Positions 1-23,239 of a DNA stretch of 64,000 nt are shown here, piece after piece (position 1 is the stretch's first letter; the number at the start of each line of letters is the position of its first letter). A program made the translations under genes and the position numbers. The stretch covers positions 7,609 through 71,608 of the forward strand of contig JALSNX010000028.1 of assembly GCA_026986775.1 (NCBI GenBank). Direction: 5' to 3'. The notes below the pieces were generated by a model. That model saw nothing but the letters and a program-made list of their open reading frames with translations, was not told the origin of the DNA and did not search any database. This DNA is from a candidate division WOR-3 bacterium (GTDB taxonomy: Bacteria; Hydrothermota; Hydrothermia; UBA1063; CAJXJZ01).

Positions 1-636
1 AAACAAACGAGCTTTCAATTTTCTTTGCTCTTCCTATACTACCCCCAGAAAGGGAATACAGTGTCAGGACAGGAATCTGCCCCTCAAAAGGATATTCTTT
101 AAACTCCTCAAATTTTAAAGGCCCAAAAGTGAATCTTTTTCCGCGTGAATAGACCGTGGGCAAAATTCTTTCTCTGTGAGATATAACCATTATTATAACT
201 GTTTCATGCGGTGGCTCTTCCAGCGTTTTAAGGAAACTGTTTTGTGATTCTGTGTTCAAATTTTCACCGTTTAACACAAGAACAACTCTCATGCTGGCTT
301 CAAATGTTCCCTTTTTTGAGAGTTCCTTTTCAAGTTCTCTGATTTTATCTATCCGTATATCTTTTGAAATATCAAAGTTGAGTGGCCTTATACCAACAGA
401 AATGTCTATTTCCGGGTCATCCATGGGTTGTACAAGATAAAAATCAGGACTCATAATGGGCTCTTTTTTCCCATCGTACATTATAAGACTGGCAAACGCA
501 TAAGCCATCTGTGCTTTTCCCACTCCCATGGGACCTTCAAAAATAAGAAATGGAGGAATAGAGCCATTTTCATACAGTTTCAAAAGAAGTCTTTTTTCGT
601 TTTCATGACCTATCACTGAAGAAAAAATGTTATCCA
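1..636 (-). CDS. holB: DNA polymerase III subunit delta' (partial; C-terminus beyond window start)
   Basis: Manual translation of the minus strand from the ATG at 636 gives [53 protein letters not shown]..., followed by FLKTLEEPP and ILPTVYSRG. These are the delta' Walker-like, LLKTLEEPP and ILPTIRSRC box motifs. The ORF runs off the window start. Confidence 0.75.
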
Positions 637-3410
637 TGCCTTTCAAGTTCCTCCCTTAAAAACCTGCCTGTATAAGATTTGTCACACCCGGCCACCTCCT
701 CTGGAGTTCCTTCAACAACTACACGCCCTCCCTTTTCTCCTCCTTCAGGTCCGAGGTCAATTATCCAGTCCGCTGACTTTATCACATCAAGGTTATGCTC
801 TATTACAAGAACGGTATTGCCCTTATCAACAAGTCTTTTCAATACCTTTATGAGTTTTCTCACATCCTCAAAATGCAGTCCAGTGGTTGGCTCATCAAGA
901 ATGTAAAGAGTATTTCCCTTCGGCATTCGTGAAAGTTCTCTCGCAAGTTTTATCCTCTGCGCTTCACCACCAGAAAGTGTGGTGGCTGGTTGACCTAATT
1001 TTATGTATCCAAGTCCCACATCTTTGAGTAATTTCAACTTTCTTTCAATAGATGGGATGTCTTTAAACAGTTTATAGGCATCATCCACGCTCATATCAAG
1101 CACATCTGCAATGCTATAACCTTTGTATTTCACTTCAAGTGTTTCTCTATTAAACCGTTTTCCTTTACACACATCGCAGGGTACATAAACATCCGGTAAA
1201 AACTGCATTTCTACCTTGATAAACCCCTCTCCCCTGCAGGCCTCACATCGTCCACCCTTCACATTGAACGAGAACCTGCCCGGAGCATACCCTCTCTTCT
1301 TTGCCTCAGGCAAAGATGCGAACAGTTCCCTTATAGCAGTAAAAGCAGATGTATAGGTTGCTGGATTTGAGCGGGGCGTCCTTCCAATGGGAGACTGGTC
1401 AATATTGATAACCTTACCGATAAACTCAACTCCCTCAATCTCATCGTGTTCACCGACCTGAACCTTTGCACCATAAAAACGTCTTATCAGGGCATGATAC
1501 AGGGTATCTTCAATTAGTGAAGATTTTCCAGAACCTGAAACACCCGTCACGCACACAAAAAGACCAAGCGGTATTTTGACATCTATATTTTTTAAGTTAT
1601 TATGCTTTGCACCTTTGATAGTCAGAAATCTTCCATCAGGCCTGCGTCTCTTTCTGGGCACATCAATCTTTCTTTCTCCCTTTAAGTACTTCCCGGTAAG
1701 TGAGCGCGGATGGGCTTTTATATCCTCAATAGTTCCTTCCGCAACGACTTTGCCTCCACGATAACCTGCACCAGGACCAAGGTCTATTATCCAGTCTGCA
1801 TTTTCCATTGTTTCCCGGTCATGCTCAACCACTATAACAGAGTTACCCTGGTCCCTCAACTTCTTCAAAGTATTTACAAGTCTTCGTGTATCACGGGGAT
1901 GCAGGCCTATTGTGGGCTCATCAAGGATGTACAGCACTCCAACCAGGCCAGAGCCAATCTGTGTTGCAAGTCTTACCCTCTGGTCCTCCCCTGATGAAAG
2001 GGTCTCTGTTGGTCTATCAAGTGTGAGATAGGAAAGTCCTATATCACGTAAAAAGGAAAGTCTTCTCAAAATCTCCTTTACAATCTGCCTGGCAATGATT
2101 TTCTTTCTGCCCTCAAATTTGAGATTTTCAAAAAAGTAAATGGCCTCATCAATGTTCATTTTCGTGATGTCATGTATATTCTTGCCCTCTATTTTTACAG
2201 ATAGCGCCTCTTTTCTCAGTCTTGAGCCACCACAAACAGGACATGTACGATAAACCAGATATTTTTCAAGTTCGTTTTTCATCCAGTCAGACTCTGTTTG
2301 CTTGTACCTTCTCCATACGTACTGAGCCACAGGTTCAAAGGCTATGTATCCTGCATTATCGCCGAATATAATGGCTCTCTTAAATTCTTCAGGTAGCCTT
2401 CTCCATGGTGCATTCAGGTCAACCCCAAACCTTTCAGCAAGACGCAAAAGTTCTTTTCTCAAGAACGGATTTGGCTCACCCCAGACCTTTATTGCTCCCT
2501 CCAGAATACTGAGCCCGGGGTCAGAAATTAGTGCCTCTGGTGACACCTCTATCTTAACACCCAATCCACCACAGGCAGGACATGCACCGTATGGCGAATT
2601 AAAAGAAAAGAGCCTCGGCTCTATTTCTGGCAAGGAATATCCACACACAGGGCACATGAGTTTTTCCGAATAGGTCTTCTCATTTCCATCTTCAGTGAGT
2701 ATTTTCACAAGTCCATCAGCTTCCTTCATGGCCTGTTCTACGGACTCTGCAAGACGGGACCTCGTATCTCCAAAGACCTTTAATCTATCAACTAAAATTT
2801 CTATATCATGCGCCCTGTAACGTTCAAGTTCAGGCGGCTGCTCAACATCATAAATGCTTCCATCCACGCGGACCCTTACATACCCCTTTTTCATTATTTT
2901 CTCAAAGAGCGTTCTGTATTCTCCTTTTCTTCCCCTTACTATAGGTGCAAGAACCATTATTCTTTTGCCATTCTCTTCAGAAATAATCTCGTCAACAATT
3001 TCATCAACAGTACTCTTTTTGAGTTCAATTCCACAGTTGGGGCAATACGGTGTTCCAACCCTTGCAAACAGAAGCCTGAGATAGTCGTAAATCTCGGTTG
3101 TGGTAGCAACAGTTGAACGTGGATTTTTTGAAGATTTTCTCTGCTCAATTGAAATTGCAGGGGATAGGCCATCTATATGGTCAACATCAGGTTTTTGCAA
3201 AAGCCCAAGAAATTGCCTTGCATATGCCGAGAGAGACTCAACATATCTCCTCTGCCCCTCAGCATATATAGTGTCAAAAGCTAAAGAGGACTTACCGGAG
3301 CCAGAAACTCCAGTTATAACAACAATTTTGTCCCGTGGTATTTTTACATCAATATTCTTTAAATTGTGGACTCTGGCGCCCTTTATTTCTATAAACTCTC
3401 TTTTTGCCAT
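630..3410 (-). CDS. uvrA: Excinuclease ABC subunit A
   Basis: 926 aa. Two ABC ATPase modules ([10 protein letters not shown] twice), zinc-finger Cys clusters, and the canonical UvrA N-terminus [20 protein letters not shown]. Confidence 0.95.
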
Positions 3411-3416
3411 GCAAAT

Positions 3417-4604
3417 CTACTTCAAAAGTCCCAGTTCTATATGTCTCTCTTTGATTCTATCAGCCAGCTCTGTAATTTTTTCATAATCTTCTTTTCGTGG
3501 ATGTCCTTTAATCAGGAGAGGCTCAAAAACATGTGCTTTTATGTTGGATAAAAGTCCTTTAAGTTGTTCTGTCATTCTTCCTCCCCATCCATATGAGCCA
3601 ATAATACCAATGTTTTTAGTCTTGGGACGAAGGGCATTCATCAAAAAGGCTGCATAAACCGCTTTGGGATGCGCACCTGCAAGAACCTGTGGACTTGCAA
3701 GAATAACGGTGGCAGCATCAACAAGAGCCATGGCCAATTTTCCTGTATCAGTGACAGTAAGATTACAGGGTTTTACGTCAATCCCCCTTTCAACAAGCCT
3801 GTCAACAAGATAGTATACTATCCGCTCAGTGCTACCATGCATGGAAACATAAGGAATAATAACCACATTTTCAACTCTTTCAGAAATCCAGTCTTTATAA
3901 GCATTAACTATGATTTCTGGTTTTTTCCATATAGAACCATGACTTGGCGCAATTATATCTACATCATATTGCTCTATTTTCTCAATATTTCGCTTTATCT
4001 GGGCTCTGAAAGGCATCATTATCTCTGCGTAATACCTCTTGGCATCCTCTATAACTTTGGCCTCATCTCTTACAAAAACACTTGCACCTGCATAATGGGA
4101 ACCAAAGAAATCGCATGTGAACATAATTTTATCCTCTACAAGATACGTGGACATGGTTTCAGGCCAGTGAACCCACGGTGTTAAAAGAAACTTCAGAGTT
4201 TTGTCACCAAGAGAAAGGGTATCACCCTCATCCACTATTATAAATTTTTCTTCATCTACATGAAGCAGGTCTTCAAGAAACATTTTACATTTTTTATTAG
4301 TTACCACCTTCGCCATGGGAAACTTCTGTAAAACATGGGGAATGGAACCAGAGTGGTCCTGCTCAGCATGCTGAGATATTACATAGTCAATTCTTTCAAC
4401 GCCCAGACTTTCAAGGTTTTCAAAGAGAACATCCTTCTTTTGTGGATCAACGGTATCAATCAACGCAGTTTTTTCACTTCCGATGATAAGATAAGCATTA
4501 TAAGTTGTGCCATCAGGGAGAGGTATGAGTTCATCAAATAGCCTTCTATCATAATGTGCAGCACCCACTTCAAAAATTCTTTCTTTTATTTTGTGAACAC
4601 TCAT
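3417..4604 (-). CDS. Flavodiiron protein (FprA / rubredoxin:oxygen oxidoreductase type; metallo-beta-lactamase plus flavodoxin domains)
   Basis: 395 aa. N-terminal diiron metallo-beta-lactamase-like motifs ([18 protein letters not shown]) and a C-terminal flavodoxin-like domain. Confidence 0.8.
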
Positions 4605-4672
4605 TTTTCACCTCCGGTTATACTTTAATTTTAGCGTATCTCCTGCGTATGACAAAGCGATTTAAAATTATT

Positions 4673-6340
4673 CTAAAACAGCCCTTCTATGTTGCCATTT
4701 TCATCAATATCTATTTTAAGAGCGGCTGGCTCCTTTGGAAGACCCGGCATGAGCATAATATCACCTGTTACTGGAACAAGAAAACCTGCACCGCTTGATA
4801 TGTTTATACTTCTCACTGTTACAAGAAAATCTTTGGGCCTTCCAAGCAGTTTTGGATTGTCAGAAAGCGACTTCTGGGTCTTTGCTATACATACGAGCAG
4901 CTTTTCAAGTCCTAATTTTTTAATCTTTTTAAGGTCTTTTTTCGCCTGTGATGTGAAATCAACTGCTTTTGAACCGTATATTTCGGATGTTACTGTTTTA
5001 ATTTTATCCTCAATACTCATATCAAGTGAATACAGGGGTTTATAAGTGCCTTCATGATTGGACAGTTCAACAACCTTTTCTGCAAGGGTCACGGCACCCT
5101 TTGAACCCTCGGCATGAGCAGTTACAACAACAGCGCTGCTACCCTTTTCTTCAACAAAGCGTTTTATAACATCTATTTCTTCGTCTGTATCAGTTTCAAA
5201 CCTGTTAATTGCAACAACACTTGGAACATTGAATTTTGCAATATTTTCAAGATGTTTTTCAAGATTTGGAAGCCCCTTTTCCACATGTTCTGGTGATGGG
5301 ACGGTAAGTTCTTTCTTATCCATTCCCCCGTGCATCTTAAGGGCTCTTACAGTGGCAACAAGCACTACAACTTTGGGGTTCAGACCAGAAGACCTTGCAA
5401 CGATGTCAAAGAATTTTTCCGCACCGAGGTCAAATCCAAAACCTGCCTCTGTCACCACATAGTCAGCAATCTTAAGAGCCATTTTCATGGATATAACAGA
5501 GCAGGTGCCCTGAGCGATGTTTGCAAAGGGTCCTGCATGGACGAAAGCAGGTGTGTTCTCTGTTGTCTGAACGAGATTGGGTTTTAAGGCATCTCTCAAG
5601 AGTGCGGAAACTGCACCTTCAAATTTCAGGTCTTTCACATATACGGGTTCATTGTCAAAGGTAAATCCAAGAAGTATGTTCTTTATCCTCTCCTTCAGGT
5701 CCTTATAGGAAGTGGCAAGCCCCAATATTGCCATTATTTCAGAGGCAGCTGTAATATAAAATCCTGTTTCTCTCGGACATCCATTCTGCTTGCCTCCAAG
5801 CCCCACAATTATATCACGCAGGGCTCTGTCGTTCATATCAACCACACGAGGCCACACAACCGTTCTCGGGTCTATCATGGGGTCCTTACGCCTGTGTATA
5901 TGATTATCCACCATTGCAGCTATAAGATTGTGGGCAGCACTCACAGCGTGTATATCCCCTGTAAAATGCAGATTTATATCTTCCATCGGCAAAACCTGAG
6001 AATAACCTCCACCCGTGGCACCGCCCTTTATTCCAAACAGAGGGCCCATTGAGGGCTCTCTAAGGGTCACAATTGAACTCTTACCAATCCTATTAAGACC
6101 AAGAGATAAACCAATTGATACAGTGGTCTTACCCTCTCCAGCGGGAGTGGGAGTAATTGCTGAAACCAGTATTAATCTTCCGTCTTTTTCACTTTTTACT
6201 TCCTCCCAGAAGGAGAGGTTAACCTTCGCCTTATACTCACCATATTTTTCAAGGTATTTCAATGGAATATTCACTTTATCTGCCACTTTATCTATGGGCA
6301 AAAGGTCTGTTTTCCTTGCAATTTCAATATCACTTAACAT
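4673..6340 (-). CDS. fhs: Formate--tetrahydrofolate ligase
   Basis: 555 aa. N-terminus MLSDIEIARK...LKYLEKYG, P-loop PTPAGEGKTT, full-length FTHFS-like. Confidence 0.95.
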   Translation of the reverse strand: MLSDIEIARKTDLLPIDKVADKVNIPLKYLEKYGEYKAKVNLSFWEEVKSEKDGRLILVSAITPTPAGEGKTTVSIGLSLGLNRIGKSSIVTLREPSMGPLFGIKGGATGGGYSQVLPMEDINLHFTGDIHAVSAAHNLIAAMVDNHIHRRKDPMIDPRTVVWPRVVDMNDRALRDIIVGLGGKQNGCPRETGFYITAASEIMAILGLATSYKDLKERIKNILLGFTFDNEPVYVKDLKFEGAVSALLRDALKPNLVQTTENTPAFVHAGPFANIAQGTCSVISMKMALKIADYVVTEAGFGFDLGAEKFFDIVARSSGLNPKVVVLVATVRALKMHGGMDKKELTVPSPEHVEKGLPNLEKHLENIAKFNVPSVVAINRFETDTDEEIDVIKRFVEEKGSSAVVVTAHAEGSKGAVTLAEKVVELSNHEGTYKPLYSLDMSIEDKIKTVTSEIYGSKAVDFTSQAKKDLKKIKKLGLEKLLVCIAKTQKSLSDNPKLLGRPKDFLVTVRSINISSGAGFLVPVTGDIMLMPGLPKEPAALKIDIDENGNIEGLF

Positions 6341-6354
6341 ACTTACCTCCTCAT

Positions 6355-7239
6355 TTAAATATCAACACCGATTATTTTCCTTGCAAGAATACCTATGGCA
6401 AAGGATAAAAGAGCGACCCCGAAACTTATGAGGAACATTTCCCAGAAAGTTTTTTTGAAGTTTGCCCCCCTCACCACAGACACAAAAAATGTGAAAAAGT
6501 ATATTACAAAGAGTGCGGCAAAGAGTGTAAAGACAAATGCCACATAGTAGTGTTTAAATAAAAAGTACGGAATCACAATCAAAAAGACGGTAAAAATATA
6601 TGCTATTCCTGTATAAAATGACCCTTTTAAGGGATTTTTGTCACCCTCGTGCCTTCTTGAGAGATACTCAGAGGCAGCCATTGACAAAGAGGCTGCAATG
6701 CCCGTAATCACCCCGGCAAGCCCCACTAACTTTGTATTCCTGAGGGCAAAGGTAAGTCCGGCTATGGTTCCAGTTATCTCAACAAGGGCATCGTTTAGCC
6801 CCAGGACCATTGAGCCTATGTATTCTAATTTTTCTTCATTAAGCATATCAATAAGAGCGTTTTCATGCGTAACCTCATCCTGAATTATATGTTCTGCCTC
6901 TTCAATATGCCCCTTTATAGCTTCGTAAGACTTCTGGGCATCCTCCTCTCCCCCTTCCATGAGTTTAACAGCAAAGGTGATACCCATGATCCGTGCTATT
7001 ATGGTGTACAGAAAAACCCTGAGTCTATCGGGTTTTACATCCACACCGGTGTATTTTTTCCATATTTCATAGTGTGCCCTCTCATCCCTTGCTATTTTTT
7101 CAAGCACCTTTCTGTTTTCACCCTTTGCCATTTTTGCAAGTTTCAGATAAAAATAATGTTCTGTAATTTCATTTTTCTGAAATTCAATTATTTTTTTTCT
7201 AAGTCTCTCATCCATGTTGTTGCTCCTTTTTATTCCCAA
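6355..7239 (-). CDS. mbfA: Membrane-bound ferritin-like (erythrin) / VIT1-CCC1 iron transporter fusion (MbfA-like)
   Basis: 294 aa. N-terminal rubrerythrin/ferritin-like four-helix region (EHYFYLKLA, ERAHYEIW, EAEHIIQDE), then a C-terminal VIT1 family membrane domain with about 5 TM segments. Confidence 0.7.
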   Translation of the reverse strand: MGIKRSNNMDERLRKKIIEFQKNEITEHYFYLKLAKMAKGENRKVLEKIARDERAHYEIWKKYTGVDVKPDRLRVFLYTIIARIMGITFAVKLMEGGEEDAQKSYEAIKGHIEEAEHIIQDEVTHENALIDMLNEEKLEYIGSMVLGLNDALVEITGTIAGLTFALRNTKLVGLAGVITGIAASLSMAASEYLSRRHEGDKNPLKGSFYTGIAYIFTVFLIVIPYFLFKHYYVAFVFTLFAALFVIYFFTFFVSVVRGANFKKTFWEMFLISFGVALLSFAIGILARKIIGVDI

Positions 7240-9235
7240 GTCTATAAATCACGAATCTTTTATTTTCAAAAACTTTTCTTAATAAAGCCCTGCCACTTAT
7301 TTCAGTATCATCAATCTCCCTGTTGCAGATGATTTCGCGGGGCACAATGAAATAATCAATGTGATATTTATCAGAAAGGACTTCTTCTGGAAAATTTCCT
7401 TTACCCTCAAAGTATTCATCAATTTTCCGTGCTATTTTCATTCTTTTGTACCATTCTATTGCAAACCTTCTGTTAAACACACCTTTTCCGCCGTCAGTAA
7501 ACAGGACAAATACATTTCTTAATAACCTATTTCTTAGCCATACTCCTACAAGGTTATCTCTGTTCCAGACGTAAAAAACATCATTCTCATTGGTATGATC
7601 TTTTATCCATGAGAATACCTCATTTAATAACCACCTGTTTCTGTATTCTGGTAGGTAGCTTTTAATATTAACACTCCGCAAATATGAATTAAATATCTCC
7701 GTTTCATCTCTTAATATGCGGTTTATAGTATCGTCTTTCCCTTCACTATAATTACTCAAGGCATATAGACCGGACAAAAGAATCATTGAGGCAAGTAGAG
7801 TTTTGAAAGCAAAAAGGGAGTTCCTGACACTCCACAGATATGCGAACAATACACAGGCACTCAGAGCAATAACTAAATAAATTAATACTGGGACTGGCTT
7901 TTGAAGTAGAACGAGCCAGGATGAATAAAGAAATATGACATCTCCACTTAGTAAAATAAGGGAAATAAGCCATACCGGCCAATATCTTTTTTTTGAATAT
8001 AATAATAGACCTTTACTTTTTGTAAACACAAACAGTATACCCAGTATACCCGTCAATGGTAAAACCATAAACTCATATACAATATTAAAAATAACCAAAA
8101 TAGTGAGTAACCATAGAAAAATAATATTTTTCAAAAACAAATTGTTGATTTTAAATGAAATTATATTATAAAATGAACTTAAAAAGAGTATTAATAAAAT
8201 TACTCTAAAAAAAATAGTTACTCTGAGCAGTTGTAAAGACAATAATGGCTGAACGGGAAATAGAGAAGAAATAACCCCAATAATTGCACTTAATAATGAG
8301 AATATCACTAAATAGTGTATTTTCAATACATCTTTTTTTGCTAAACTCATTCTACCAGTATATGATAACATTTTGTATAAAATAGCATAAGAAATTATAC
8401 CCACTGGAAGCAATATAAGATATATGATATTATATTGCTGATCAAAGAACAAAAAAAGATAGCCACTCCTTAAGATACTTAGCCATTCACTGTCAACGAT
8501 TTTCAGATTCAAAATATGTACAGGAGTAAAACGATAATTCACTATAAAGTACAACGTCAATAAAATTATACTCCCAGCTAATACAATCAAAAATTTTGCT
8601 CTACTATCAAATTCACAAAATCTTGTCTTATAATAATAATAAAAAACTGCACCAATAATAGGTATAGGTGTAATAACATGAAATGCAAGTGCTACAAGTA
8701 GCATTATACCTGCCAGAACATACCGTTCCTTTCTGTAAAATGATATTGCTATTAGAGAAAGTGCAAAAGATATATTACGTGGAACAAGTCCATAGGGATT
8801 AAACACTCTAATGAAAGTAAATAAATATGGAGTTACAGGAGGGAGGAAAACAAGAGGTAAAAAGAGGCTGAATATTTTTCTTTTAGAAATCCAGTAAGAA
8901 AGGTCAAAAAGTCCCCAGAAGATTATGAACTTGGTGATAATATCCAAAATATTTATTATATTTAGTAGCTTAAGTTTAAATGCCCTGTGAATACCAATTA
9001 TTATATTATCGTATATAGTAAAATTTGTTTGTAAAAAAGTAGTGGTTAAATCGTGATTTAGCAACTTAGGATCAATCTTATGTATTATCTCAGGAAGATA
9101 ATGCCAGGCAAGGTCACCATATAAAGTGTAATGTCCGGGAAGAACAAGAAAACTAAACATCGTATAAATAGCAAAAATTAGTGACAGATAAATAAACCCT
9201 GTAGTGTTTTCTTCCAATTCTCTTAACTTCAACAT
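7208..9235 (-). CDS. Large polytopic membrane protein with C-terminal soluble domain (GT-C-like architecture; function unknown)
   Basis: 675 aa. About 12 predicted TM helices in the first roughly 440 aa, then a roughly 200-aa hydrophilic C-terminal domain. Strongly AT-rich codon usage (I/L/F/Y/N/K rich) compared with its neighbours. Start overlaps the stop of the upstream gene at 9235 (translational coupling). Confidence 0.6.
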   Translation of the reverse strand: MLKLRELEENTTGFIYLSLIFAIYTMFSFLVLPGHYTLYGDLAWHYLPEIIHKIDPKLLNHDLTTTFLQTNFTIYDNIIIGIHRAFKLKLLNIINILDIITKFIIFWGLFDLSYWISKRKIFSLFLPLVFLPPVTPYLFTFIRVFNPYGLVPRNISFALSLIAISFYRKERYVLAGIMLLVALAFHVITPIPIIGAVFYYYYKTRFCEFDSRAKFLIVLAGSIILLTLYFIVNYRFTPVHILNLKIVDSEWLSILRSGYLFLFFDQQYNIIYLILLPVGIISYAILYKMLSYTGRMSLAKKDVLKIHYLVIFSLLSAIIGVISSLFPVQPLLSLQLLRVTIFFRVILLILFLSSFYNIISFKINNLFLKNIIFLWLLTILVIFNIVYEFMVLPLTGILGILFVFTKSKGLLLYSKKRYWPVWLISLILLSGDVIFLYSSWLVLLQKPVPVLIYLVIALSACVLFAYLWSVRNSLFAFKTLLASMILLSGLYALSNYSEGKDDTINRILRDETEIFNSYLRSVNIKSYLPEYRNRWLLNEVFSWIKDHTNENDVFYVWNRDNLVGVWLRNRLLRNVFVLFTDGGKGVFNRRFAIEWYKRMKIARKIDEYFEGKGNFPEEVLSDKYHIDYFIVPREIICNREIDDTEISGRALLRKVFENKRFVIYRLGNKKEQQHG

Positions 9236-10089
9236 TATTCGTTTTTCCTATGATGCTCCACTAGATTGCTTGTGCTTTTTACTGTTCCATCACTGTCAAT
9301 ATAAAATCTCCCACCATAAGGGTCTTGAGGTATTTTTTTCATATACCCCTTTTGTTTAAGTTCATTTAAATCATACGGTAATCTGCCCTCTTTCCTTTTA
9401 AAGGCCTCCACTGCCCTCTCTATTTTAAGAACTCCAAGTAAAGCCTTTTTTCTCTTTAAAAGTTCCCTTTTCCAGTTTTCATCATCTGTATTCTTAATCT
9501 GACCGTCAAGAATATTCAGTGCTATTTCTGTTCTTCCCGAGGCGTAATAGAGTCTTGATGCAAGAGAGGCGAGAAAGGCGCTGCGTTTTAATTTTGCTGC
9601 CTCTGTCATATACTCAGCAGCAAGGTCATATTTCTTCATGAAGTAAAAATAATTAAAACTCAGAAGGAAATACCAGAACCAATCGCTTTTTCTGTATTTT
9701 ATGGCCCTTTTCAAGACCTTTTCCGCATCACTGTATCTTTTAAAATCCCACATCAGATTCAACGAAGCAATATAGTAAATGTCAAAATAATACGGATTTA
9801 AAGCACTTGCCACTCTGTAAGCCTTAAATACAACATCCCCCACCCATTCTGGAAAGTATGGATGCTGTTCAAGTATGGTCGCAAGAAATACACGTAAATC
9901 AAGAGTAACCCAGAAACTTCTTATTCCCTCATAGTCCAGGCTCATAATTTTTTCTGCCTCTGGTGAAAGGAGAAAAAGCCCTGCATTGGCCTTTTGAATC
10001 TTCCTGTATCGGGATATCTCAGGAACCATATAGGAATTTGTAGCAATCAGAAGACCTGCCAGCAAAAACCCCAAAAACACTCTCTTCAT
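9235..10089 (-). CDS. Secreted TPR-like protein with C-terminal GspG (T2SS pseudopilin)-like domain
   Basis: 284 aa. Hydrophobic N-terminal signal (MKRVFLGFLLAGLLIA) with no prepilin G|FTLIE site, and helical TPR-like repeats. The C-terminus KGYMKKIPQDPYGGRFYIDSDG matches the GspG/EpsG core motif GGYI[KR]RLP[KQ]DPWGxxYQ. Confidence 0.6.
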   Translation of the reverse strand: MKRVFLGFLLAGLLIATNSYMVPEISRYRKIQKANAGLFLLSPEAEKIMSLDYEGIRSFWVTLDLRVFLATILEQHPYFPEWVGDVVFKAYRVASALNPYYFDIYYIASLNLMWDFKRYSDAEKVLKRAIKYRKSDWFWYFLLSFNYFYFMKKYDLAAEYMTEAAKLKRSAFLASLASRLYYASGRTEIALNILDGQIKNTDDENWKRELLKRKKALLGVLKIERAVEAFKRKEGRLPYDLNELKQKGYMKKIPQDPYGGRFYIDSDGTVKSTSNLVEHHRKNE

Positions 10090-10859
10090 TTTATCTCTTT
10101 TTTCTGAAAAAAAAGAATGCTCAAAAGGATAAGAATAAAACTGTATATAAGCCCATATAGAAGGACAAGTATGTAATGTCCCGAACCGATTGAAAGCCCA
10201 TAAGAGAGCGATATCTTCATATCAAAGAAGGAAAAATTTGGAAAAATATAATACGCCGATTTTACAAGAAATTTTGAAATTAGAGGAATGTTCTCTGCTC
10301 GTTTTGTCTGAATAAATTGTACAGCATCGTCAAGATTGACACCAATCACGTAAATAAATAGTATTATGAAGGAAATAAGAACAGGCCGTTTACTGGCATT
10401 TATAAGAAAGTAAGCAAGAGAGGTAATAAGTAGCATCATAACCCATAAAAGTGGTAACTGAAGAAAAAGAACAGTTTTGAATTCTTTAAACAACAGGGCA
10501 TTGAGAATAACAAAGCCAGATAGCATGAGCGTGCTTGTAAAAATACCTGAAAAAACTATTCCGAAAACCCTTCCAAGGATATAATCCATTCTTTTCAGAG
10601 GCAGGGACAGCAGGTACTCAATGGTCTTTTTATTGAGGTCCTCTGTCAAAAAAGAAAAAATCAGGAAGAAGACAAGAACCAGAGTCAAAAACTCGGTGAC
10701 TGAAAGGGAATAGGTAAACATTACTTTTGATGCTTCAAACATGGTAAAATCATTTACAATGAAGTAAATAAAAAGCGAAAATAAATACAGAATCAATGTA
10801 CTGTAAAATGCCCTTTCTTTAACAGCCTCTTTAAGCGTGAGATACAGCATCCGCACCAT
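10086..10859 (-). CDS. ABC-2 family transporter permease
   Basis: 257 aa, about 6 TM helices, no soluble domain. Overlaps the ATPase gene upstream and the TPR gene downstream by 4-29 nt. Confidence 0.7.
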   Translation of the reverse strand: MVRMLYLTLKEAVKERAFYSTLILYLFSLFIYFIVNDFTMFEASKVMFTYSLSVTEFLTLVLVFFLIFSFLTEDLNKKTIEYLLSLPLKRMDYILGRVFGIVFSGIFTSTLMLSGFVILNALLFKEFKTVLFLQLPLLWVMMLLITSLAYFLINASKRPVLISFIILFIYVIGVNLDDAVQFIQTKRAENIPLISKFLVKSAYYIFPNFSFFDMKISLSYGLSIGSGHYILVLLYGLIYSFILILLSILFFQKKEIK

Positions 10860-11580
10860 TGTTCAGTGCCTCCACAAAAATATCTTCAAGGCGTTTATTT
10901 AAAAGCATGTTCCTTTCTATTTCCTTTATGATTTTACCGCGATTTAAAATGAGAATCCTGTCACACATATCCTCTATGTCTTCAAGAATGTGAGATGTAA
11001 AGAATACTGTTTTGCCTTTATTTTTATGTTCAATTATGAGTTCTTTTGCCATCTTTCTCCCCAGGGGGTCAAGCCCGGAAAGCGGCTCATCTAAAATCAC
11101 AAATTCTGGACTACCAAGGAACGCCTGTGCAAGTCCGAGCCTCTGGACCATACCTTTTGAGTATTTCCTTATGGATTTTTTTTCACTGCCCTGTAAACCC
11201 ACTCTAAAAATTAAAGATTCTATGGTGTCTTTAATTTTTTTACTGTTTACCCCTCTCAATCCTCCTACAAAACTCAAAAACTCAACTGCATTAAGATTTT
11301 CAAAAAACACAGGGTTTTCAGGAAGATATGCTATTCTTCTTTTGATTTTAACATCATGTGTATAAGATCCGAACACCCTAACATTACCCTTATCCGGAAA
11401 TAAAAGTCCGAGCATAATTTTTATAGTTGTACTCTTACCCTGCCCATTAAGCCCAACAAGACCCAGTATTTCTCCCTTCTTTACCCTGAAGGATATGCCA
11501 CTGAGTACCTTCTGCATGGGACCACCAATATCTTTTATCCTGAAGGATTTTTCCACCTCTTTAAACTCAACGATTTTCAT
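10831..11580 (-). CDS. ABC transporter ATP-binding protein (ABC-2 / DrrA-NatA type)
   Basis: 249 aa. Walker A GLNGQGKST, signature YSKGMVQRLGLAQA, Walker B FVILDEP, H-loop TSH. Confidence 0.9.
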   Translation of the reverse strand: MKIVEFKEVEKSFRIKDIGGPMQKVLSGISFRVKKGEILGLVGLNGQGKSTTIKIMLGLLFPDKGNVRVFGSYTHDVKIKRRIAYLPENPVFFENLNAVEFLSFVGGLRGVNSKKIKDTIESLIFRVGLQGSEKKSIRKYSKGMVQRLGLAQAFLGSPEFVILDEPLSGLDPLGRKMAKELIIEHKNKGKTVFFTSHILEDIEDMCDRILILNRGKIIKEIERNMLLNKRLEDIFVEALNNGADAVSHA

Positions 11581-11614
11581 CGCATTCTAAATTATAAGTT
11601 GAAAAATGTGGATA

Positions 11615-11644
11615 TAAAAAAAAGGGGGCCAGAGCCCCCTTTTT
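11615..11644 (-). terminator. Rho-independent (bidirectional) terminator downstream of pilA
   Basis: GGGGGC-cagA-GCCCCC hairpin (11624-11639), flanked by A8 on the plus strand (a U-tract on the minus strand) and T5. Confidence 0.6.
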
Positions 11645-11661
11645 AGCTTCTACAATATTTC

Positions 11662-12168
11662 TTACTGGAGTACCCAGTTGTTACCACTCGGACCTGCTAC
11701 ACCATTAAAGTCATCCTGCTGTGCGACAGAGGCAGGACAGTCACCATCCTGAAGTAGGACATTGACATTTCCGTCAGCCTTATCAAAGTAAATACCCTGC
11801 ACGTCAGAATCTGCACCATAATAGGTATCACCATTTACGTGTTTTGTCACCATGGTGTAACTCACATAATTAGCATCTGTATGTATGGTGATAGAAACCT
11901 TTGTAGAGAGGTTAAATGTCTCTGTATGTGTACCATCACTGATTGTTACCTGGTTAGGTGCAGAAACCACACCGCCAGTGTTGCCATAGCTCTGCCAGTC
12001 AGCAAAGAATGCTTCCTCTGTGGTTCTTGCGTTTCTCAGGTCACTCTCTGCAGAGCCATTGTATGCTCTTATTCTGTATTTTGCGAACTGCGGTATGGCT
12101 ATTGCAGCCAGGATCGCAATGATTGCGATCACGATGAGGAGTTCTATCAGTGTGAACCCTTTCCTCAT
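11662..12168 (-). CDS. pilA: Type IV pilin (major pilin, class III signal peptide)
   Basis: 168 aa. MRKGFTLIELLIVIAIIAILAAIAIP is the canonical prepilin leader, with cleavage after G, an N-methyl-Phe site, and E5. AGGAGGTA RBS about 7 nt upstream. Confidence 0.9.
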   Translation of the reverse strand: MRKGFTLIELLIVIAIIAILAAIAIPQFAKYRIRAYNGSAESDLRNARTTEEAFFADWQSYGNTGGVVSAPNQVTISDGTHTETFNLSTKVSITIHTDANYVSYTMVTKHVNGDTYYGADSDVQGIYFDKADGNVNVLLQDGDCPASVAQQDDFNGVAGPSGNNWVLQ

Positions 12169-12214
12169 GTTAATACCTCCTGTTTGTTTTTATTTTTCAC
12201 TTCACTAATTATAT

Positions 12215-12230
12215 AGCAATCTATATGCCA
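12215..12230 (-). promoter_or_regulatory. Candidate sigma-54 (RpoN) -24/-12 promoter for pilA
   Basis: The minus strand reads TGGCAT-ATAGA-TTGCT. This matches TGGCAC-N5-TTGCW with exact GG-N10-GC spacing, about 47 nt upstream of the pilA ATG. Confidence 0.5.
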
Positions 12231-12314
12231 AATCAAACCCTTATTTTAAAAGCAATTTTAAGGATAATTTCGCATTTTCCACTTGCAGGATGCAACTCGT
12301 ATTGCATTTTGCAA

Positions 12315-13670
12315 TCATTTAATAAGCACCCCCCTATTATAACCTATATAAACCCTGTTATTAAACTCTGCAACGGCTGTAATCCCTTTTACTTCAGGTT
12401 GACCGGGATCAAATGTCTTCCAGTTGCGATGAGCAAAATCGTACATAACAACTCTGTTTGAAGATGCGAGATACACCGAATTATCAGAAGCAACACCGCT
12501 ATGGATGGATAAAAGGTTAAAGGGACTCTTTATAAGATTAATCTTTTTATCTGAAATTATAAATAGTCCCCTCCTTGCCGGCACGTAAATGGCACTATAA
12601 CCCTGAACAATGTAATTGGTTAAAATGGGTTCGTTTTCATAATCAACCTCATTTAAAACAGTATCTTTCAGGGTATAGAGTTTTCCATTCGCAATTAGAT
12701 AAATATCATTAAAAGAGGCAGTGGCATATTTTATAGGCATGATAGAAGTAAAATAGCGCTTTACAGAACCATCATCACTAACTGTAAGTATGCAATTTCG
12801 GGTTGCTATAAAGTTATAGGTTTCGGTATTGAAAGCACAGACAGCATCACCACAGCCTCCATCAAAAGATGTGAAGAAATACGGGTCACTGAGTGTATAA
12901 AAGCCGTTTTTGTTTAAAAGTAAAACGCTTTCACCGATATATAGAAAATCAACAGGACTGAACCCATACTGAAAACAGTCTGTGGAGAGAGAATTTACAT
13001 AATCATCAGAGATCTTCGTCACTCCGGCGGCATGAAGCACGTAAAGGGTATCAAACACTACACCTAACCGATACACAGGAGGCTCTATATTTATATAGAC
13101 TCTCTTTTTCAACTTCTTCATTCTTCTGTCAAATACATATACCCCATTTGCTTTGGTACCAACATAGTCCAGATCATATCCTCCAGCATAACCTGTTGGC
13201 TCAGAAAAAACGTGACAGGGATTTTCATATGTCCTTGTTTTAAGGTACAGGGGCAGAGAACGGGGCTTTGTTAAAAACATGGTATCTATATAAATAGCGG
13301 GCGCAGGCTGGTTAAACTTTGACAGGTATCGCCTGGTACCGTTCTTGTAAAGAAGCATTATTATACCTGCTGAAAACCCCATACCTACAACGCCTCCAAC
13401 CATACCCACCTTTTTTAACGATTCAAAAAAAGGAGAATATACGTAAAGCATTCCGTCTTTTGTAACAAACGCAATCTCACCTGAACGGGAATCATAAGAG
13501 GCAAGACGAACCCATTTTGTGGCATAGGATGAAACAATACCCTCGTTGTTATCATAAACAAAAATCCCGCCATCTGTTGCAGCACAAAATCCTCTGCCTG
13601 TAAACTGCATAGAATTTACATGGGAGAAATCTGCAAGATACAACGTGGCAAATAAGAACAGTTTAATCAT
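12315..13670 (-). CDS. Secreted hypothetical protein, probable beta-propeller fold
   Basis: 451 aa. N-terminal hydrophobic signal, then recurring hydrophobic-Tyr-hydrophobic blade-like strands (VYVFD, LYVLH, FYTLSD, LYTLKD, VYLASS, VYIGY). No catalytic motifs recognised. Confidence 0.5.
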   Translation of the reverse strand: MIKLFLFATLYLADFSHVNSMQFTGRGFCAATDGGIFVYDNNEGIVSSYATKWVRLASYDSRSGEIAFVTKDGMLYVYSPFFESLKKVGMVGGVVGMGFSAGIIMLLYKNGTRRYLSKFNQPAPAIYIDTMFLTKPRSLPLYLKTRTYENPCHVFSEPTGYAGGYDLDYVGTKANGVYVFDRRMKKLKKRVYINIEPPVYRLGVVFDTLYVLHAAGVTKISDDYVNSLSTDCFQYGFSPVDFLYIGESVLLLNKNGFYTLSDPYFFTSFDGGCGDAVCAFNTETYNFIATRNCILTVSDDGSVKRYFTSIMPIKYATASFNDIYLIANGKLYTLKDTVLNEVDYENEPILTNYIVQGYSAIYVPARRGLFIISDKKINLIKSPFNLLSIHSGVASDNSVYLASSNRVVMYDFAHRNWKTFDPGQPEVKGITAVAEFNNRVYIGYNRGVLIK

Positions 13671-15150
13671 TCAAAACTCCCATTGCTTTATGTATGTTTT
13701 CCACAAGGTCATGTGGAACATAGTAGGGACCATTCATCTCCTCATACAGAATATCTCCTAAAAGTGCATGAATAAAGACTCCTGCAAGGAGCGCATTGGA
13801 TAAGTCATCTGTCTGAACCAGAAGTCCCCCTATTATACCTGAAAGCACATCACCACTTCCACCCTTCCCAAGCCCCTCATTTCCAAGAACATTCACGTAA
13901 TTTCCATAAGATGTTGATAAAATTGTGGGATTTCCTTTTAAAACCACTTCAAATCCTGTTCGTTCTCTAAGTTTCAATGCAAACGCAAACCTTTCTCTGT
14001 CAATATCATGTGGAGGCGATTTAACAAGAAGTGCAGCCTCACCGGGATGAGGGGTAATGGCAACCTTATCCCTTTTTTCAATATGTTTTAATTCAGAAAG
14101 AGTCCATATGCCATCAGCATCAACAATCAGGGGCAAATCTTTTTTAGCTAAAAGCATCTTTAAAATGTTTACGGTATCATCCCTTCTGCCAACACCCGGA
14201 CCAAATACCACTCCATCAGGCTCAAATTCTCCAATAAGTCTTTCTATGTCACTATAATTCTCGTATGAAACTACCACAGGGTCTATAATTTTAGCGCTAA
14301 CCTGTGTATATACCTCTTTTCGCACAGCAAGATACACCAATCCCGCACCTATTTTCTGGGCTGCATCTGCCACAAGTTGCGGTGCACCTGTATATCCCGA
14401 TGAGCCTGCAATAACCAGAAGTTTCCCGTTTTTCCCTTTATGTTCATTACCCAGTTTAAAGGGAAGATAAAACTCCTCTTCATCAAGAAGCCTGAAAGGA
14501 GGTTCAAACGGTATATTGTATGGCACACCTATGTCTATTACGTAGATTTCGCCAGCGTAAAACCTTCCCGGATACAAAAGCAATCCTCTTTTCGGAAAAG
14601 CCATTGTTCCCGTAATATCTGCCAAAACAGCGGTTTTACCGACCATGCCTGTAAGTCCATTTACACCACTCGGAATATCCACTGAGACAACACATGCATC
14701 CTGCTGGTTTATTACATCTATCAAATCTGCAATCTCCCCCTTTACCTCACCCTTAAAGCCAGTTCCAAAAATCGCATCCACAATGATATCAGCCTCTTTC
14801 AGATATGCCATGTCAAAATCATGAAGTTTTACTACTTCTCCGCCCAGTTTTTTGAAGAGTAAATAATTTTTCCTTGCCTCACCTTTAAGTTTTGAAAATT
14901 TACCCGTAAACACCACAAGAACCTTATATCCCCTGTTTAAAAGGTATCTTGCAACAACAAACCCATCTCCTCCATTATTGCCGCCACCTGCGCATACTAT
15001 TACCTTATCACCTTCACACTCCGATTCAATTATCTCCACTATACCTCTACCTGCGGATTCCATCAGAGTAAACCCTGGAATGCCAAACTCTTTTATGGTC
15101 CATCTGTCAATCTCTCTCATTTCATCCGGGGTTAAAACAAAAGTTCCCAT
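13663..15150 (-). CDS. nnr: Bifunctional NAD(P)H-hydrate repair enzyme (epimerase/dehydratase)
   Basis: 495 aa. YjeF-N domain (VIVCAGGGNNGGDGFVVARYL) plus a C-terminal carbohydrate-kinase-like dehydratase domain (GKGGSGDVLSG). Confidence 0.85.
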   Translation of the reverse strand: MGTFVLTPDEMREIDRWTIKEFGIPGFTLMESAGRGIVEIIESECEGDKVIVCAGGGNNGGDGFVVARYLLNRGYKVLVVFTGKFSKLKGEARKNYLLFKKLGGEVVKLHDFDMAYLKEADIIVDAIFGTGFKGEVKGEIADLIDVINQQDACVVSVDIPSGVNGLTGMVGKTAVLADITGTMAFPKRGLLLYPGRFYAGEIYVIDIGVPYNIPFEPPFRLLDEEEFYLPFKLGNEHKGKNGKLLVIAGSSGYTGAPQLVADAAQKIGAGLVYLAVRKEVYTQVSAKIIDPVVVSYENYSDIERLIGEFEPDGVVFGPGVGRRDDTVNILKMLLAKKDLPLIVDADGIWTLSELKHIEKRDKVAITPHPGEAALLVKSPPHDIDRERFAFALKLRERTGFEVVLKGNPTILSTSYGNYVNVLGNEGLGKGGSGDVLSGIIGGLLVQTDDLSNALLAGVFIHALLGDILYEEMNGPYYVPHDLVENIHKAMGVLND

Positions 15151-15599
15151 ATTCCCTCCTTCTTCAACCTCTTTATCATTAAATCTATATGTGAACCTCT
15201 CCAGTAAATTTTATTGCATACTGGACAGAACTTAAACTCATTGAAGTTCTTATAAGTGAAATAGGGCACTTTACCCCTTACATTTTCATGGGGAATGTCC
15301 AAAAGAGGTGCATTACATTTTGAACATCTCGTAAGTATGCGGGGTTCTCTGATATTAAAATGCTTTATTACATCCTTTAGTTGTTCAAACAGAAAATCAC
15401 TTTCAAGCACATATACATTTTTATAAGGAAGGCGATTGAACTCTGTATTTCTCGTAAGAATAACCCTGTTTTCCGCATCAGCTATTTTTAAAAGTGCATC
15501 AGGTTCATGAAAATGCGTTGATTCTGTGTCCTGCCCGAGAAATCTCAACCATTTTGCAAGTTTGAGGACAGTAGCATCGCATAAAAACTTAAAACTCAT
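15132..15599 (-). CDS. Mut7-C RNase domain protein (PF01927-like) with C-terminal zinc ribbon
   Basis: 155 aa. FLCDATVLKLAKWLRFLGQD matches the Mut7-C (DUF82) N-terminal consensus. CxxC...CxxC at the C-terminus. Confidence 0.65.
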   Translation of the reverse strand: MSFKFLCDATVLKLAKWLRFLGQDTESTHFHEPDALLKIADAENRVILTRNTEFNRLPYKNVYVLESDFLFEQLKDVIKHFNIREPRILTRCSKCNAPLLDIPHENVRGKVPYFTYKNFNEFKFCPVCNKIYWRGSHIDLMIKRLKKEGIWELLF

Positions 15600-16368
15600 G
15601 CTGAAGTTTTATGAGTATCTCCCTGAATAAAAATGCTGCCTTTGTGGCTGAATTTGTGGAGTGGTCCATAAGAGGTGAAAATTCCACTATGTCCGCTGCC
15701 ATAATGTTTTTAAGTAGCAGTATCTCATCCAAAATTTCCATTATTCCCTTTCCTCCCGGTTCTGGATTCGTAACGCCGGGAAATTCGGATGGATTGATTA
15801 CATCAAGGTCTAAAGTGAGATAAACTGGAGTTTTTATGTTCAAAAGCTCATTTCTGTAGTCTTCCCATGCGTAAAAGATATTTTTACTTTTTTCTTCGCA
15901 CGGTGCCTTTGTTCTAACTCCAACTGTAATTACATTCTCTTTGCCAATGAGTTTTTCCACGTGATACATGAAGGTTGCATGGTTATAAACCTCTTTTTCA
16001 AACTCAGGACGTCTGTCCATGTGTGCATCAAAATGCACCACCGTAAAATTAAGGTCAAGTTCTTCTTTCAAATATACGATTAGAGGGAAGGTAATAAAAT
16101 GGTCTCCCCCCAGTGCAACAAAAGGAGGAAATAGTTTTATGTCTTTTAACTTTTCTATAAGAAAATCCGCAAAATACTTTCCCTTTATATCAAGGGGCGG
16201 ATAAAAGTCTGAAAGGTCGTGGTATTCTTTAAGTTCTCTTTCCTGAATAACAGAGTAGTATTCTAAAGATGAAAGATGGTACCTTATAAAACCTGGTGCA
16301 AGTGCTGCACCTTTCTGGAAATTTTCACTGCCCTCATAGGGTATGCCAAATACACTAACCAATGGCAT
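15589..16368 (-). CDS. speB: Agmatinase / ureohydrolase (arginase family)
   Basis: 259 aa. Mn-binding motifs GGDHFITFP, HFDAHMD, DLDVINP, SEFPGVTNPEPGG. Confidence 0.85.
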   Translation of the reverse strand: MPLVSVFGIPYEGSENFQKGAALAPGFIRYHLSSLEYYSVIQERELKEYHDLSDFYPPLDIKGKYFADFLIEKLKDIKLFPPFVALGGDHFITFPLIVYLKEELDLNFTVVHFDAHMDRRPEFEKEVYNHATFMYHVEKLIGKENVITVGVRTKAPCEEKSKNIFYAWEDYRNELLNIKTPVYLTLDLDVINPSEFPGVTNPEPGGKGIMEILDEILLLKNIMAADIVEFSPLMDHSTNSATKAAFLFREILIKLQHEF

Positions 16369-18532: not shown

Positions 18533-18544
18533 ACACTTCCTACC

Positions 18545-18949
18545 TTACACGTATGCTTCTTCCTTAACTGAATCAGCATATTTGTACATGTCCTGCTCGC
18601 GGAAAACTCCACGCTTCATTTCCATTACAGTCATATGTCCCGGTCTGAAGTACTTTTCAAAGAGTTTTAAAGCCACATCTATATCAACATCATCAGAGCA
18701 GTAGAAATAATCTACAGCAGCATAACCATGTTCAGGCCATGTGTGTATTGAAAGATGGGATTCTTCTATTATAACCACACCTGAGACTCCATGTGGCTGG
18801 AACTGATGGAAGAATGAACCGAGGGCGTGGGCATTGGATTTTTTTGCTATATCAAGGAATGCTCTCTCAACCTGATCCTTATTTTTGAGGGTTTCAGGAT
18901 CACAATCATACATTTCTATTATTACATGCACCCCAAGGGCTTTTTTCAA
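18545..18949 (-). CDS. speD: S-adenosylmethionine decarboxylase proenzyme (small bacterial/archaeal type)
   Basis: 134 aa. Self-cleavage and active-site region IEESHLSIHTWPE. GGAGGTG RBS. Confidence 0.85.
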   Translation of the reverse strand: MKKALGVHVIIEMYDCDPETLKNKDQVERAFLDIAKKSNAHALGSFFHQFQPHGVSGVVIIEESHLSIHTWPEHGYAAVDYFYCSDDVDIDVALKLFEKYFRPGHMTVMEMKRGVFREQDMYKYADSVKEEAYV

Positions 18950-23238: not shown

Positions 23239-23239
23239 A

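Follow-up and report, generated by a model that had tools for sequence, protein, structure and literature searches.

The gene at positions 7208 to 9235, on the minus strand of a 64-kb stretch of contig JALSNX010000028.1 from a candidate division WOR-3 bacterium (hereafter the window), probably encodes an integral-membrane glycosyltransferase of the GT-C fold, belonging to an uncharacterised family for which DUF6798 is the sole curated model. GT-C enzymes build and decorate bacterial envelopes, including their O-antigens, arabinans, teichoic acids and glycoproteins. A first-pass annotation of the same DNA had described an AT-rich gene for a protein with 12 transmembrane (TM) helices and a GT-C layout; its coordinates are exact, with the gene on the minus strand, an ATG start and a product of 675 aa. 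The target gene and its parts are:

7208..9235, minus strand: target gene, ATG start, coding for a 675-aa predicted GT-C-fold membrane glycosyltransferase, a divergent member of the DUF6798 family
7739..9235, minus strand: membrane domain, residues 1-499, with ~15 predicted helices (from model helices, hydropathy and positive-inside loop charges)
8969..9139, minus strand: first extracytoplasmic loop (EL1), residues 33-89, with D41, Y46, P48 and D62 (from its two interfacial helices and conservation)
7211..7636, minus strand: predicted C-terminal periplasmic alpha/beta domain, residues 534-675, which includes the DUF6798 region and is like the GT-C "luminal dome"

The single-sequence AlphaFold model of the target has a pLDDT of 44. 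An AlphaFold2 model built with 50 homologues (alignment A1, the 50-sequence alignment of the family) reaches a pLDDT of 78 and a pTM of 0.84, with pLDDT above 90 at residues 40-130, 150-200, 300-330 and 540-630. Residues 1-362 form a predicted catalytic module that is conserved and modelled with high confidence, followed by a variable helical bundle of lower confidence (residues 363-499). The model contains about 15 membrane helices (13-15), which revises the earlier count of 12. The folded C-terminal domain spans ~140 aa (534-675) and is preceded by a low-confidence linker of ~35 aa; the first-pass annotation had proposed a soluble periplasmic domain of ~200 aa, which agrees with the predicted location and overstates the size. 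The positive-inside rule is satisfied with the N-terminus inside, where cytoplasmic loops carry clusters of 3-5 Lys/Arg and short outer loops carry 0-1, and this topology places both EL1 (33-89) and the C-terminal domain in the predicted periplasm.

All of the top fold matches of the model are GT-C enzymes, and the seven Foldseek matches with E <= 1e-3 are all STT3, DPY19 or ALG9, consistent with the layout first proposed. The polytopic fold contains the GT-C helical module, with EL1 and its two interfacial helices (residues 40-54 and 75-86) following TM1. The combination of a membrane domain and a C-terminal core or "dome", as in STT3/AglB/PglB, is also present in the model, and the C-terminal domain resembles the "luminal dome" found at the C-terminus of oligosaccharyltransferase (OST) and DPY19 enzymes (PMC10154233). 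An RND or MFS transporter had been named at the outset as the assignment that would speak against a glycosyltransferase; neither profiles nor fold support one.

A catalytic acidic residue directly after TM1 is a hallmark of GT-C enzymes (PMC11127046, PMC10154233). The target carries conserved acidic residues in EL1 shortly after TM1, D41 and D62. D41 (codon 9113-9115) lies 10 residues past TM1, where the first EL1 helix begins, and the equivalent position is catalytic in ArnT, GT136 ORF12 (D31) and DPY19 (E71) (PMC11127046, PMC10154233). The first periplasmic loop had already been suspected of holding such a residue within the motif YGDLAWHY. The motif is indeed located in this loop, and D41 is conserved in 98% of the 50 homologues, followed by D62 (96%) and Y46 (94%). 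Near-invariant positions in A1 are found at the end of TM1 and in EL1 (S28, G34, D41, Y46, D62), in the remainder of the membrane domain (R153, H186, W251, Q335, R338) and in the C-terminal domain (W543, T548, R568, A592, E594, W595, R598). W543, R568 and R598 are fully invariant. D248 is present in 86% of the 50 sequences and is invariant in the ten closest. Two motifs characterise the family, GDQxxYxP in EL1 and [YF]AxEWxxR in the dome. With the start Met excluded, 49 of the 51 positions that are at least 70% conserved lie on the predicted periplasmic side, and a clustering of conserved residues on the extracytoplasmic side has been reported for GT-C families (PMC10920833).

The closest Pfam model to the target is DUF6798 (PF20604), which matches residues 539-600 with 14.0 bits (E 0.043). 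This score is below the DUF6798 cutoff of 26.9, so standard annotation leaves the target blank. A HMMER search of 1.84 billion representatives returned 113 proteins at E < 1e-3, 30 of them at E < 1e-10. These relatives are mostly 540-650 aa long and 23-37% identical to the target (23-30% among full-length relatives), save for one orthologue at 92%, and as a set they cover both the membrane part and the C-terminal domain. HMMER also shows homology of the target to DUF6798 proteins, with E values down to 1.7e-20, and 45 of the 50 A1 homologues match DUF6798 at E <= 1. Judged from these sequence comparisons, the target is a divergent DUF6798 relative that the Pfam model itself misses. The DUF6798 model covers part of the C-terminal domain, and the membrane module of the family (~500 aa) has no curated model. 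A profile of the C-terminal domain retrieves 273 DUF6798 proteins, all of them labelled "hypothetical" and some from metagenome-assembled genomes of Acidobacteria. Our literature search found DUF6798 mentioned in no paper, and a search for a link to Bacteroidota O-oligosaccharyltransferases returned nothing relevant.

Hydrophobic words filled up the candidate list of the word-index search, which returned one protein with the full protein as query and four with the full alignment; only a profile of the C-terminal domain made it productive. The sole homologue recovered with the target itself is the 92% identical protein, from a fully syntenic locus of GCA_054027995.1. A single-protein search of genome and metagenome contigs for related loci found no relative.

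The target shares several features with the GT-C(A) enzymes STT3/AglB/PglB (GT66), DPY19 and Emb/AftA/AftD, including the N-in topology and an acidic residue in EL1 after TM1. It is also like STT3, DPY19 and Emb in having at least 13 helices and, above the active site, an extracytoplasmic alpha/beta domain at its C-terminus, and Foldseek E values between the GT-C(A) "dome" enzymes and the target model range from 1.6e-4 to 8.6e-4. However, there is no significant sequence similarity to these enzymes, the model has ~15 helices rather than 13, and the target family has motifs of its own. The STT3 and Dpy19 Pfam models match none of the 50 members at E <= 1. The OST hallmark WWDYG, searched for as W[WY][DE][YWF]G, is found in none of the 116 family sequences, and we reject an STT3-type OST on this ground. 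The C-terminal-domain profile does match DPY19 weakly and collinearly at residues 532-557 and 598-618, with a non-significant E of 0.22, and sequence searches of the Protein Data Bank with the protein, the family profile and the C-terminal-domain profile gave no significant match and no OST. PMT enzymes (GT39) differ from the target in that they lack a C-terminal dome and carry an inserted MIR domain within a loop; for both PMT and ArnT (GT83), there is no PMT or PMT_2 profile match, and only ~320 residues align with the target.

The neighbourhoods of relatives provide insight on the likely donor. We sampled nine independent lineages besides that of the window, with loci labelled by L-numbers. 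In L006, L008, L010 and L011, GtrA overlaps the family gene or lies next to it, and a PRK07208-family FAD oxidoreductase adjoins it in L007, L008, L010 and L011/12. One or both of these partners are adjacent in 5 of the 9 loci, two of which additionally contain a GT2 gene, near the family gene in L008 (best NCBIfam matches PgfS and ArnC) and L011 (AglJ, PpgS and Dol-P-hexose transferase). All of these matches are polyprenyl-phosphate sugar synthases. Sugar-nucleotide enzymes are encoded in 4 of the 9 loci (L006, L010, L011, L013). A synthase, a flippase and a GT-C enzyme together form the gene signature of three-component periplasmic glycosylation (PMC11127046), and the presence of GtrA and polyprenyl-phosphate GT2 genes beside the relatives argues for a polyprenyl-monophosphate monosaccharide as donor. 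By gene layout, the trio-like arrangement of GtrA and GT2 beside the relatives is comparable to GtrA/GtrB/Gtr*, to GT136 ORF12 of Citrobacter youngae and to PpgS/Rv3632/Rv3779. The classical Gtr trio does not contain a PRK07208 FAD oxidoreductase, which is a frequent fourth partner among the relatives of the target. These FAD oxidoreductases score above the family cutoff and are distantly related to UDP-galactopyranose mutase; the enzyme may be a fourth component of the glycosylation module, perhaps modifying the sugar or forming a furanose.

From the GtrA/GT2 context of the relatives and by analogy with these systems, we infer that the target transfers a glycosyl group from a polyprenyl-phosphate-linked donor. 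In the mechanism we propose, the N-terminus would be cytoplasmic, and a conserved module of seven to ten helices, together with EL1 and its two interfacial helices, would form an active site facing the periplasm. D41 would serve as the catalytic acidic residue, while D62, R153, H186, D248, W251, Q335 and R338 would bind the sugar-phosphate head group of the polyprenyl-phosphate-linked donor; by analogy, R153, H186, R338 and D248 are the candidates for contacting phosphate and sugar. The C-terminal alpha/beta "dome" (W543, R568, E594-W595, R598) would cap the site and contribute to acceptor binding. As donor we consider a polyprenyl-monophosphate monosaccharide most likely, which would be made by a GT2 enzyme and flipped to the periplasm.

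Several observations weigh against this interpretation. Pfam and NCBIfam scans of the target return no family at threshold, and at the level of sequence there is no link from the target to any characterised glycosyltransferase family. TM-scores to solved structures are modest (0.34-0.42). The pLDDT falls to 50-65 in helices 11-15 and to less than 50 in the linker (495-532), and the helix count and the side of the membrane on which the C-terminal domain lies therefore rest on the positive-inside rule and analogy. Finally, no GT2, GtrA or sugar-nucleotide partner adjoins the target in the window, which differs from a Gtr-type trio in having neither GtrA nor GT2 within its 64 kb. With no partner of the donor pathway in the window, the donor assignment is borrowed from relatives that are 23-29% identical.

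The target lies within a run of five minus-strand genes linked by overlaps, which in operon order encode the ABC (ATP-binding cassette) ATPase, the ABC-2 permease, a tetratricopeptide repeat (TPR) protein, the target and a VIT1 protein. The features of this region are:

6355..7215, minus strand: VIT1/rubrerythrin-domain gene, 286 aa from the ATG at 7215, with an 8-nt overlap with the target stop
9235..10089, minus strand: TPR protein gene, 284 aa, with an N-terminal signal/anchor and TPR repeats (TPR_19 and TPR_14 just under Pfam cutoffs)
10086..10859, minus strand: ABC-2-type permease gene, 257 aa, with a hydropathy score (GRAVY) of 1.02 (weak ABC2_membrane_3 and ABC2_membrane_2 matches)
10831..11580, minus strand: ABC ATPase gene, 249 aa, of the DrrA/GldA-like ABC-2 subfamily, first gene of the operon (ABC_tran E 1.3e-27)
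11591..11618, minus strand: candidate sigma-70-like promoter TTTATA-16-TATAAT upstream of the ABC ATPase gene (10/12 in a consensus scan, a pattern match only)
11619..11644, minus strand: intrinsic terminator that ends the pilin unit, with an 11-bp stem, 6 GC pairs and a T-tract (sequence scan)
11662..12168, minus strand: type IV pilin-like gene, 168 aa, a separate transcription unit (N_methyl motif E 1e-8)

The successive overlaps are 29, 4, 1 and 8 nt, and the stop codon of the TPR gene shares a single base with the target start (TAATG). This arrangement of reading frames indicates that the target is translationally coupled with the ABC-2 transporter, TPR and VIT1 genes. The FTHFS gene follows 14 nt past the VIT1 gene. 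VIT1 is co-transcribed with the target, although the linkage is probably incidental; in 80 metagenomic loci with VIT1 relatives, no family member is nearby.

The TPR protein should be periplasmic, given its hydrophobic N-terminal signal/anchor, and is a putative periplasmic partner or acceptor-binding subunit. In this genome, the target enzyme would be co-produced with a likely acceptor recruiter and an ABC-2 exporter. A second lineage (L004, L174) likewise has a TPR gene whose end overlaps the family gene's start, although a test of orthology showed that the TPR proteins of the window and L004 are not specifically related. In L174, positions 4944-6483 contain the family gene broken into three consecutive open reading frames (ORFs) of 188, 150 and 160 aa behind an MFS-TPR gene pair, as in L004, and only the last of the three contains DUF6798, the result of either a pseudogene or frameshift errors. 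This split gene suggests that many short "DUF6798-only" proteins in databases are probably fragments. Large neighbours of the family gene in L005 and L008 were tested as family paralogues and are not paralogues.

A GT-C enzyme combined with a periplasmic or lumenal TPR module is known from eukaryotic TMTC proteins and from TfpW, the pilin arabinosyltransferase of Pseudomonas aeruginosa. TfpW has its periplasmic TPR fused to the GT-C enzyme; its gene directly follows pilA, and the enzyme requires both a GtrA-like protein and the FAD-dependent DprE1 (bioRxiv 10.1101/2020.04.19.049825). The window similarly holds pilin, TPR and GT-C genes within 5 kb, but its TPR protein is a separate, translationally coupled polypeptide rather than a fusion, and its pilin gene, separated from the target by three genes, has a transcription unit of its own. 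The O-antigen that GT136 ORF12 modifies is the substrate of an ABC exporter (PMC11127046), which provides a precedent for an ABC exporter and a GT-C enzyme in one pathway. Together, the TfpW and GT136 analogies make the ABC/TPR context of the target plausible, not established. It is a more speculative proposal, and in our view quite an unlikely one, that the ABC-2 ATPase, ABC-2 permease, TPR protein and DUF6798 GT-C enzyme form an undescribed split machine for protein glycosylation, in which the ABC-2 transporter would replace the GtrA/SMR/MATE flippase in delivering the lipid-linked sugar, the TPR protein would recruit a periplasmic or surface protein (possibly the pilin) and the sugar would be transferred by the GT-C enzyme, the first member of a new CAZy family.

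Translational coupling with the ABC-2 ATPase and permease could also be taken to mean that the target is a non-catalytic protein of GT-C fold, either a scaffold or substrate-binding subunit like PIG-U of the glycosylphosphatidylinositol transamidase or an accessory of the ABC-2 transporter, and the window's lack of donor-synthesis genes would fit such a role. However, the family gene is associated with ABC genes only in the lineage of the window (0 of 9 other contexts), a near-invariant acidic residue, D41, stands at the canonical catalytic position, and the full conserved set of periplasm-facing Arg/His/Asp residues is preserved in the orthologue. We consider a non-catalytic role very improbable.

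The ABC-2 exporter in the target operon bears on a further alternative, raised by the first-pass annotation when it likened the compositional bias to that of wzy/waaL/O-oligosaccharyltransferase-type genes. As a Wzy polymerase, WaaL ligase or PglL O-oligosaccharyltransferase, the target would move an undecaprenyl-diphosphate-linked glycan, for example one exported by the ABC-2 transporter, onto a chain, a lipid or a protein. AT-rich, codon-atypical and fast-evolving genes are typical of wzy and waaL. The composition of the target and its ratio of nonsynonymous to synonymous substitution rates (dN/dS) of 0.41 are similar, and the Wzy/WaaL/PglL (Wzy_C) and EpsG polymerases are, like the target, multi-pass proteins involved in envelope glycans. 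The Pfam EpsG model is matched by 3 of the 50 homologues (best E 1.9e-8), and beyond DUF6798 and EpsG nothing is recurrent. One relative, L013, is located within a Wzz/Wzx polysaccharide cluster with no visible Wzy, and STT3, AglB and PglB, which use diphosphate donors, are among the best fold matches. The profile check that the first pass had suggested, for Wzy_C, PMT_2 and DUF2723, gave no match at E <= 1 in the target or the 50 homologues, and the same holds for O-antigen ligase; among the fold matches of the model there is no WaaL or SEDS structure. The catalytic loop is placed differently as well: Wzy/WaaL-type enzymes have their long conserved loop near the C-terminus (PMC10920833), whereas in the target it follows TM1. 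The GtrA and polyprenyl-phosphate GT2 genes of the relatives point to monophosphate rather than diphosphate donors. The best NCBIfam matches of the ABC ATPase are GldA and DrrA, both under their curated cutoffs, and at 173-186 bits it is nearer to these than to the ATPase of the teichoic-acid exporter (99 bits). Taken as a whole, the Wzy/WaaL/PglL assignment appears improbable, and a GT-C enzyme using a polyprenyl-monophosphate donor is the interpretation that we prefer.

The pilin is a possible acceptor of the target enzyme. Its gene is 2.4 kb upstream of the target, with its own terminator and three genes between. The module of GT-C, GtrA, FAD oxidoreductase and GT2 genes in L008 has a pilin gene and a T2SSF gene at its borders; pilin adjacency is found in only 2 of 10 lineages. 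The pilin gene of the window has the highest GC content (0.454) of the 49 ORFs delimited there, the second-strongest codon deviation (z 4.8) and its own strong terminator, features that are consistent with a highly expressed major pilin. Residues 243-270 of the TPR protein (…IPQDPYGGRFYIDSDGTVKS…) match the C-terminal part of the pseudopilin GspG weakly, with E values for the TPR C-terminus of 0.015 for Pfam T2SSG and 0.027 for TIGR01710. In L008, a 558-aa protein encoded near the family gene likewise matches T2SSG weakly. These weak matches could be a hint of some connection with pilins or pseudopilins.

The composition of the target gene is unusual. Among the 49 ORFs of the 64-kb window it is the most AT-rich (GC 0.309 against a window mean of 0.397), and its overall GC, GC at first codon positions (GC1, 0.365) and GC at third positions (GC3, 0.271) are each the minimum of the set, where GC3 has a mean of 0.362 and a standard deviation (sd) of 0.028. 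GC in 300-nt windows over 8000-8750 is 0.243, 0.243, 0.277 and 0.307, with a trough of 0.243 at 8000-8450, in good agreement with the first estimate of ~25% at 8000-8700 against ~40% in the flanks. The predominance of Ile, Leu, Phe, Tyr, Asn and Lys noted at the same time was also correct, as these six make up 53% of the residues.

The first-pass annotation had suggested examining sliding-window GC and codon usage, which we did against the ORFs of the window. For each ORF, we calculated the GC that its amino-acid sequence would have if encoded with the codon usage of the remaining 48 ORFs. The target has an expected GC of 0.347 and an observed GC of 0.309 (z = -6.2), while the remaining 48 ORFs have an sd of 1.05 and a minimum of -2.1, and four more genes for membrane proteins (VIT1, ABC-2 permease, LptF/G, EamA) have z values of +1.3 to +1.9. 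Of the 9-point GC shortfall, amino-acid composition accounts for about 5 points and synonymous codon choice for about 4. In a likelihood-ratio test of synonymous codon usage, the target scores z = 10.1, followed by the pilin gene at 4.8, with a median of 0.4. The shift in codon usage goes beyond a reduced GC3, as seen for Leu (TTA 0.31 in the target vs 0.13 in the window, CTA 0.15 vs 0.04), Thr (ACT 0.56 vs 0.20) and Ser (AGT 0.40 vs 0.20). The anomaly is strongest in the membrane part (GC3 0.253, z -6.2) and weak in the C-terminal domain (GC3 0.322, z -1.8). The AT-richness is thus a product of both a Leu/Ile/Phe-rich membrane protein and atypical codon usage. One would expect such a composition in a fast-evolving envelope gene with either weak expression or an acquisition far in the past.

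This composition had been read as a sign of horizontal acquisition. The atypical codon usage that prompted this reading is real, and as the strongest codon-usage outlier of the window with the lowest GC3, the target could on composition be taken for a recently inserted, horizontally acquired island. Its closest relatives are likewise found in low-GC contexts and are AT-richer than their flanks (GC 0.259 vs 0.295 in L006, 0.327 vs 0.377 in L007 and 0.332 vs 0.400 in L008), although two more distant family members are not. A total of 160 more distant loci anchored on FTHFS or VIT1 contain no family member; the nearest relatives there are only 59-62% identical and without synteny. The organism is sparsely sampled: no GTDB species representative has an FTHFS protein more than 62% identical to its own, and the best matches come from Cloacimonadota, Delongbacteria, WOR-3 and Bacteroidia. 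However, the ends of the target overlap both neighbours (by 1 nt and 8 nt) and leave no space for scars, and no repeats, tRNA genes, mobility genes, insertion scars or structured RNAs (Rfam families) were found in its flanks, so recent insertion of an island is not supported. The sister genome, the only related genome, has the gene at the same syntenic position and with the same composition (GC 0.316 against 0.398 in the flanks). The nearest homologue beyond this orthologue is only 29% identical, and with relatives below 30% no donor lineage can be named.

Measured against the orthologue at L001, the dN/dS of the target is 0.41, compared with 0-0.18 in 16 neighbouring genes, and the differences are mostly Ile/Val/Leu swaps over the helices (7-10% of positions), with 3.5% in the dome. 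None of 21 family-conserved positions is altered in the 92% identical orthologue. A dN/dS below 1 and the retention of conserved positions indicate that the gene is functional, with its membrane part under relaxed or diversifying constraint. The concentration of the codon anomaly in the membrane part and its weakness in the C-terminal domain are explained by gene-specific selection or relaxed constraint no less well than by foreign origin. We consider recent insertion unlikely, while an ancient and incompletely ameliorated acquisition is possible. The bias may stem either from an old acquisition from a low-GC lineage or from gene-specific AT drift under weak selection, which is typical of wzy-like envelope genes. 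Synonymous divergence (dS) from L001, over 630-18949, varies ~25-fold between adjacent genes, from 0.012 at 3420-4604 to 0.30 in the TPR gene and 0.28 at 16358-17173, which suggests a recombination mosaic between the window strain and the sister strain.

This analysis assigns the DUF6798 family to the GT-C fold, with the C-terminal domain of unknown function as the predicted "luminal dome". The family has hundreds of metagenome members and no characterised representative. We name D41, R153, H186, D248 and R338 as candidate catalytic residues and draw attention to a recurrent set of partners, GtrA, a polyprenyl-phosphate GT2 and a PRK07208-type FAD enzyme. GT-C is a well-known structural class, and current understanding is not overturned. 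CAZy is still gaining families, with GT136 added in 2024 and 17 for Wzy, WaaL and SEDS enzymes in the same year, and the target would probably found a new one if characterised. For annotation, the lesson is that an orphan AT-rich membrane ORF can be placed through profile-assisted structure prediction.

The remainder of the window gives some indication of the organism. It is a diderm that encodes BamA, LptF/G, PorV and a C25 peptidase with a sorting domain of the type IX secretion system (T9SS). The PorV-like protein is encoded at 41618-42715 and the C25-family peptidase, with its Por secretion tail, at 49467-52385 on the minus strand; together they point to a T9SS and place the organism in or near the FCB group. 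All but one of the 49 ORFs are on the minus strand, with a GC skew that is negative nearly throughout, and no tRNA gene or Rfam family is found in the 64 kb. A 451-aa ORF at 12315-13670 (minus strand), between YjeF-type and pilin genes, has no Pfam match at E <= 0.1 and is conserved in L001 and L002 with 95% amino-acid identity. An Era-like GTPase ORF is located at 45.3-46.2 kb.

Two metabolic clusters are also present. The first, at 15132-18949 on the minus strand, encodes AdoMet decarboxylase, two spermidine/spermine synthase-like proteins, a pyruvoyl-dependent arginine decarboxylase and agmatinase (Pfam labels taken from the syntenic L001), a polyamine set typical of thermophiles that make long or branched polyamines. 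The second, at 22198-34899, is a carbohydrate and compatible-solute cluster with a GalT-like gene, two GH57 enzymes, mannosylglycerate synthase and an 833-aa fused sugar-phosphate nucleotidyltransferase/phosphomannomutase, and is suggestive of a thermophile or halophile lifestyle.

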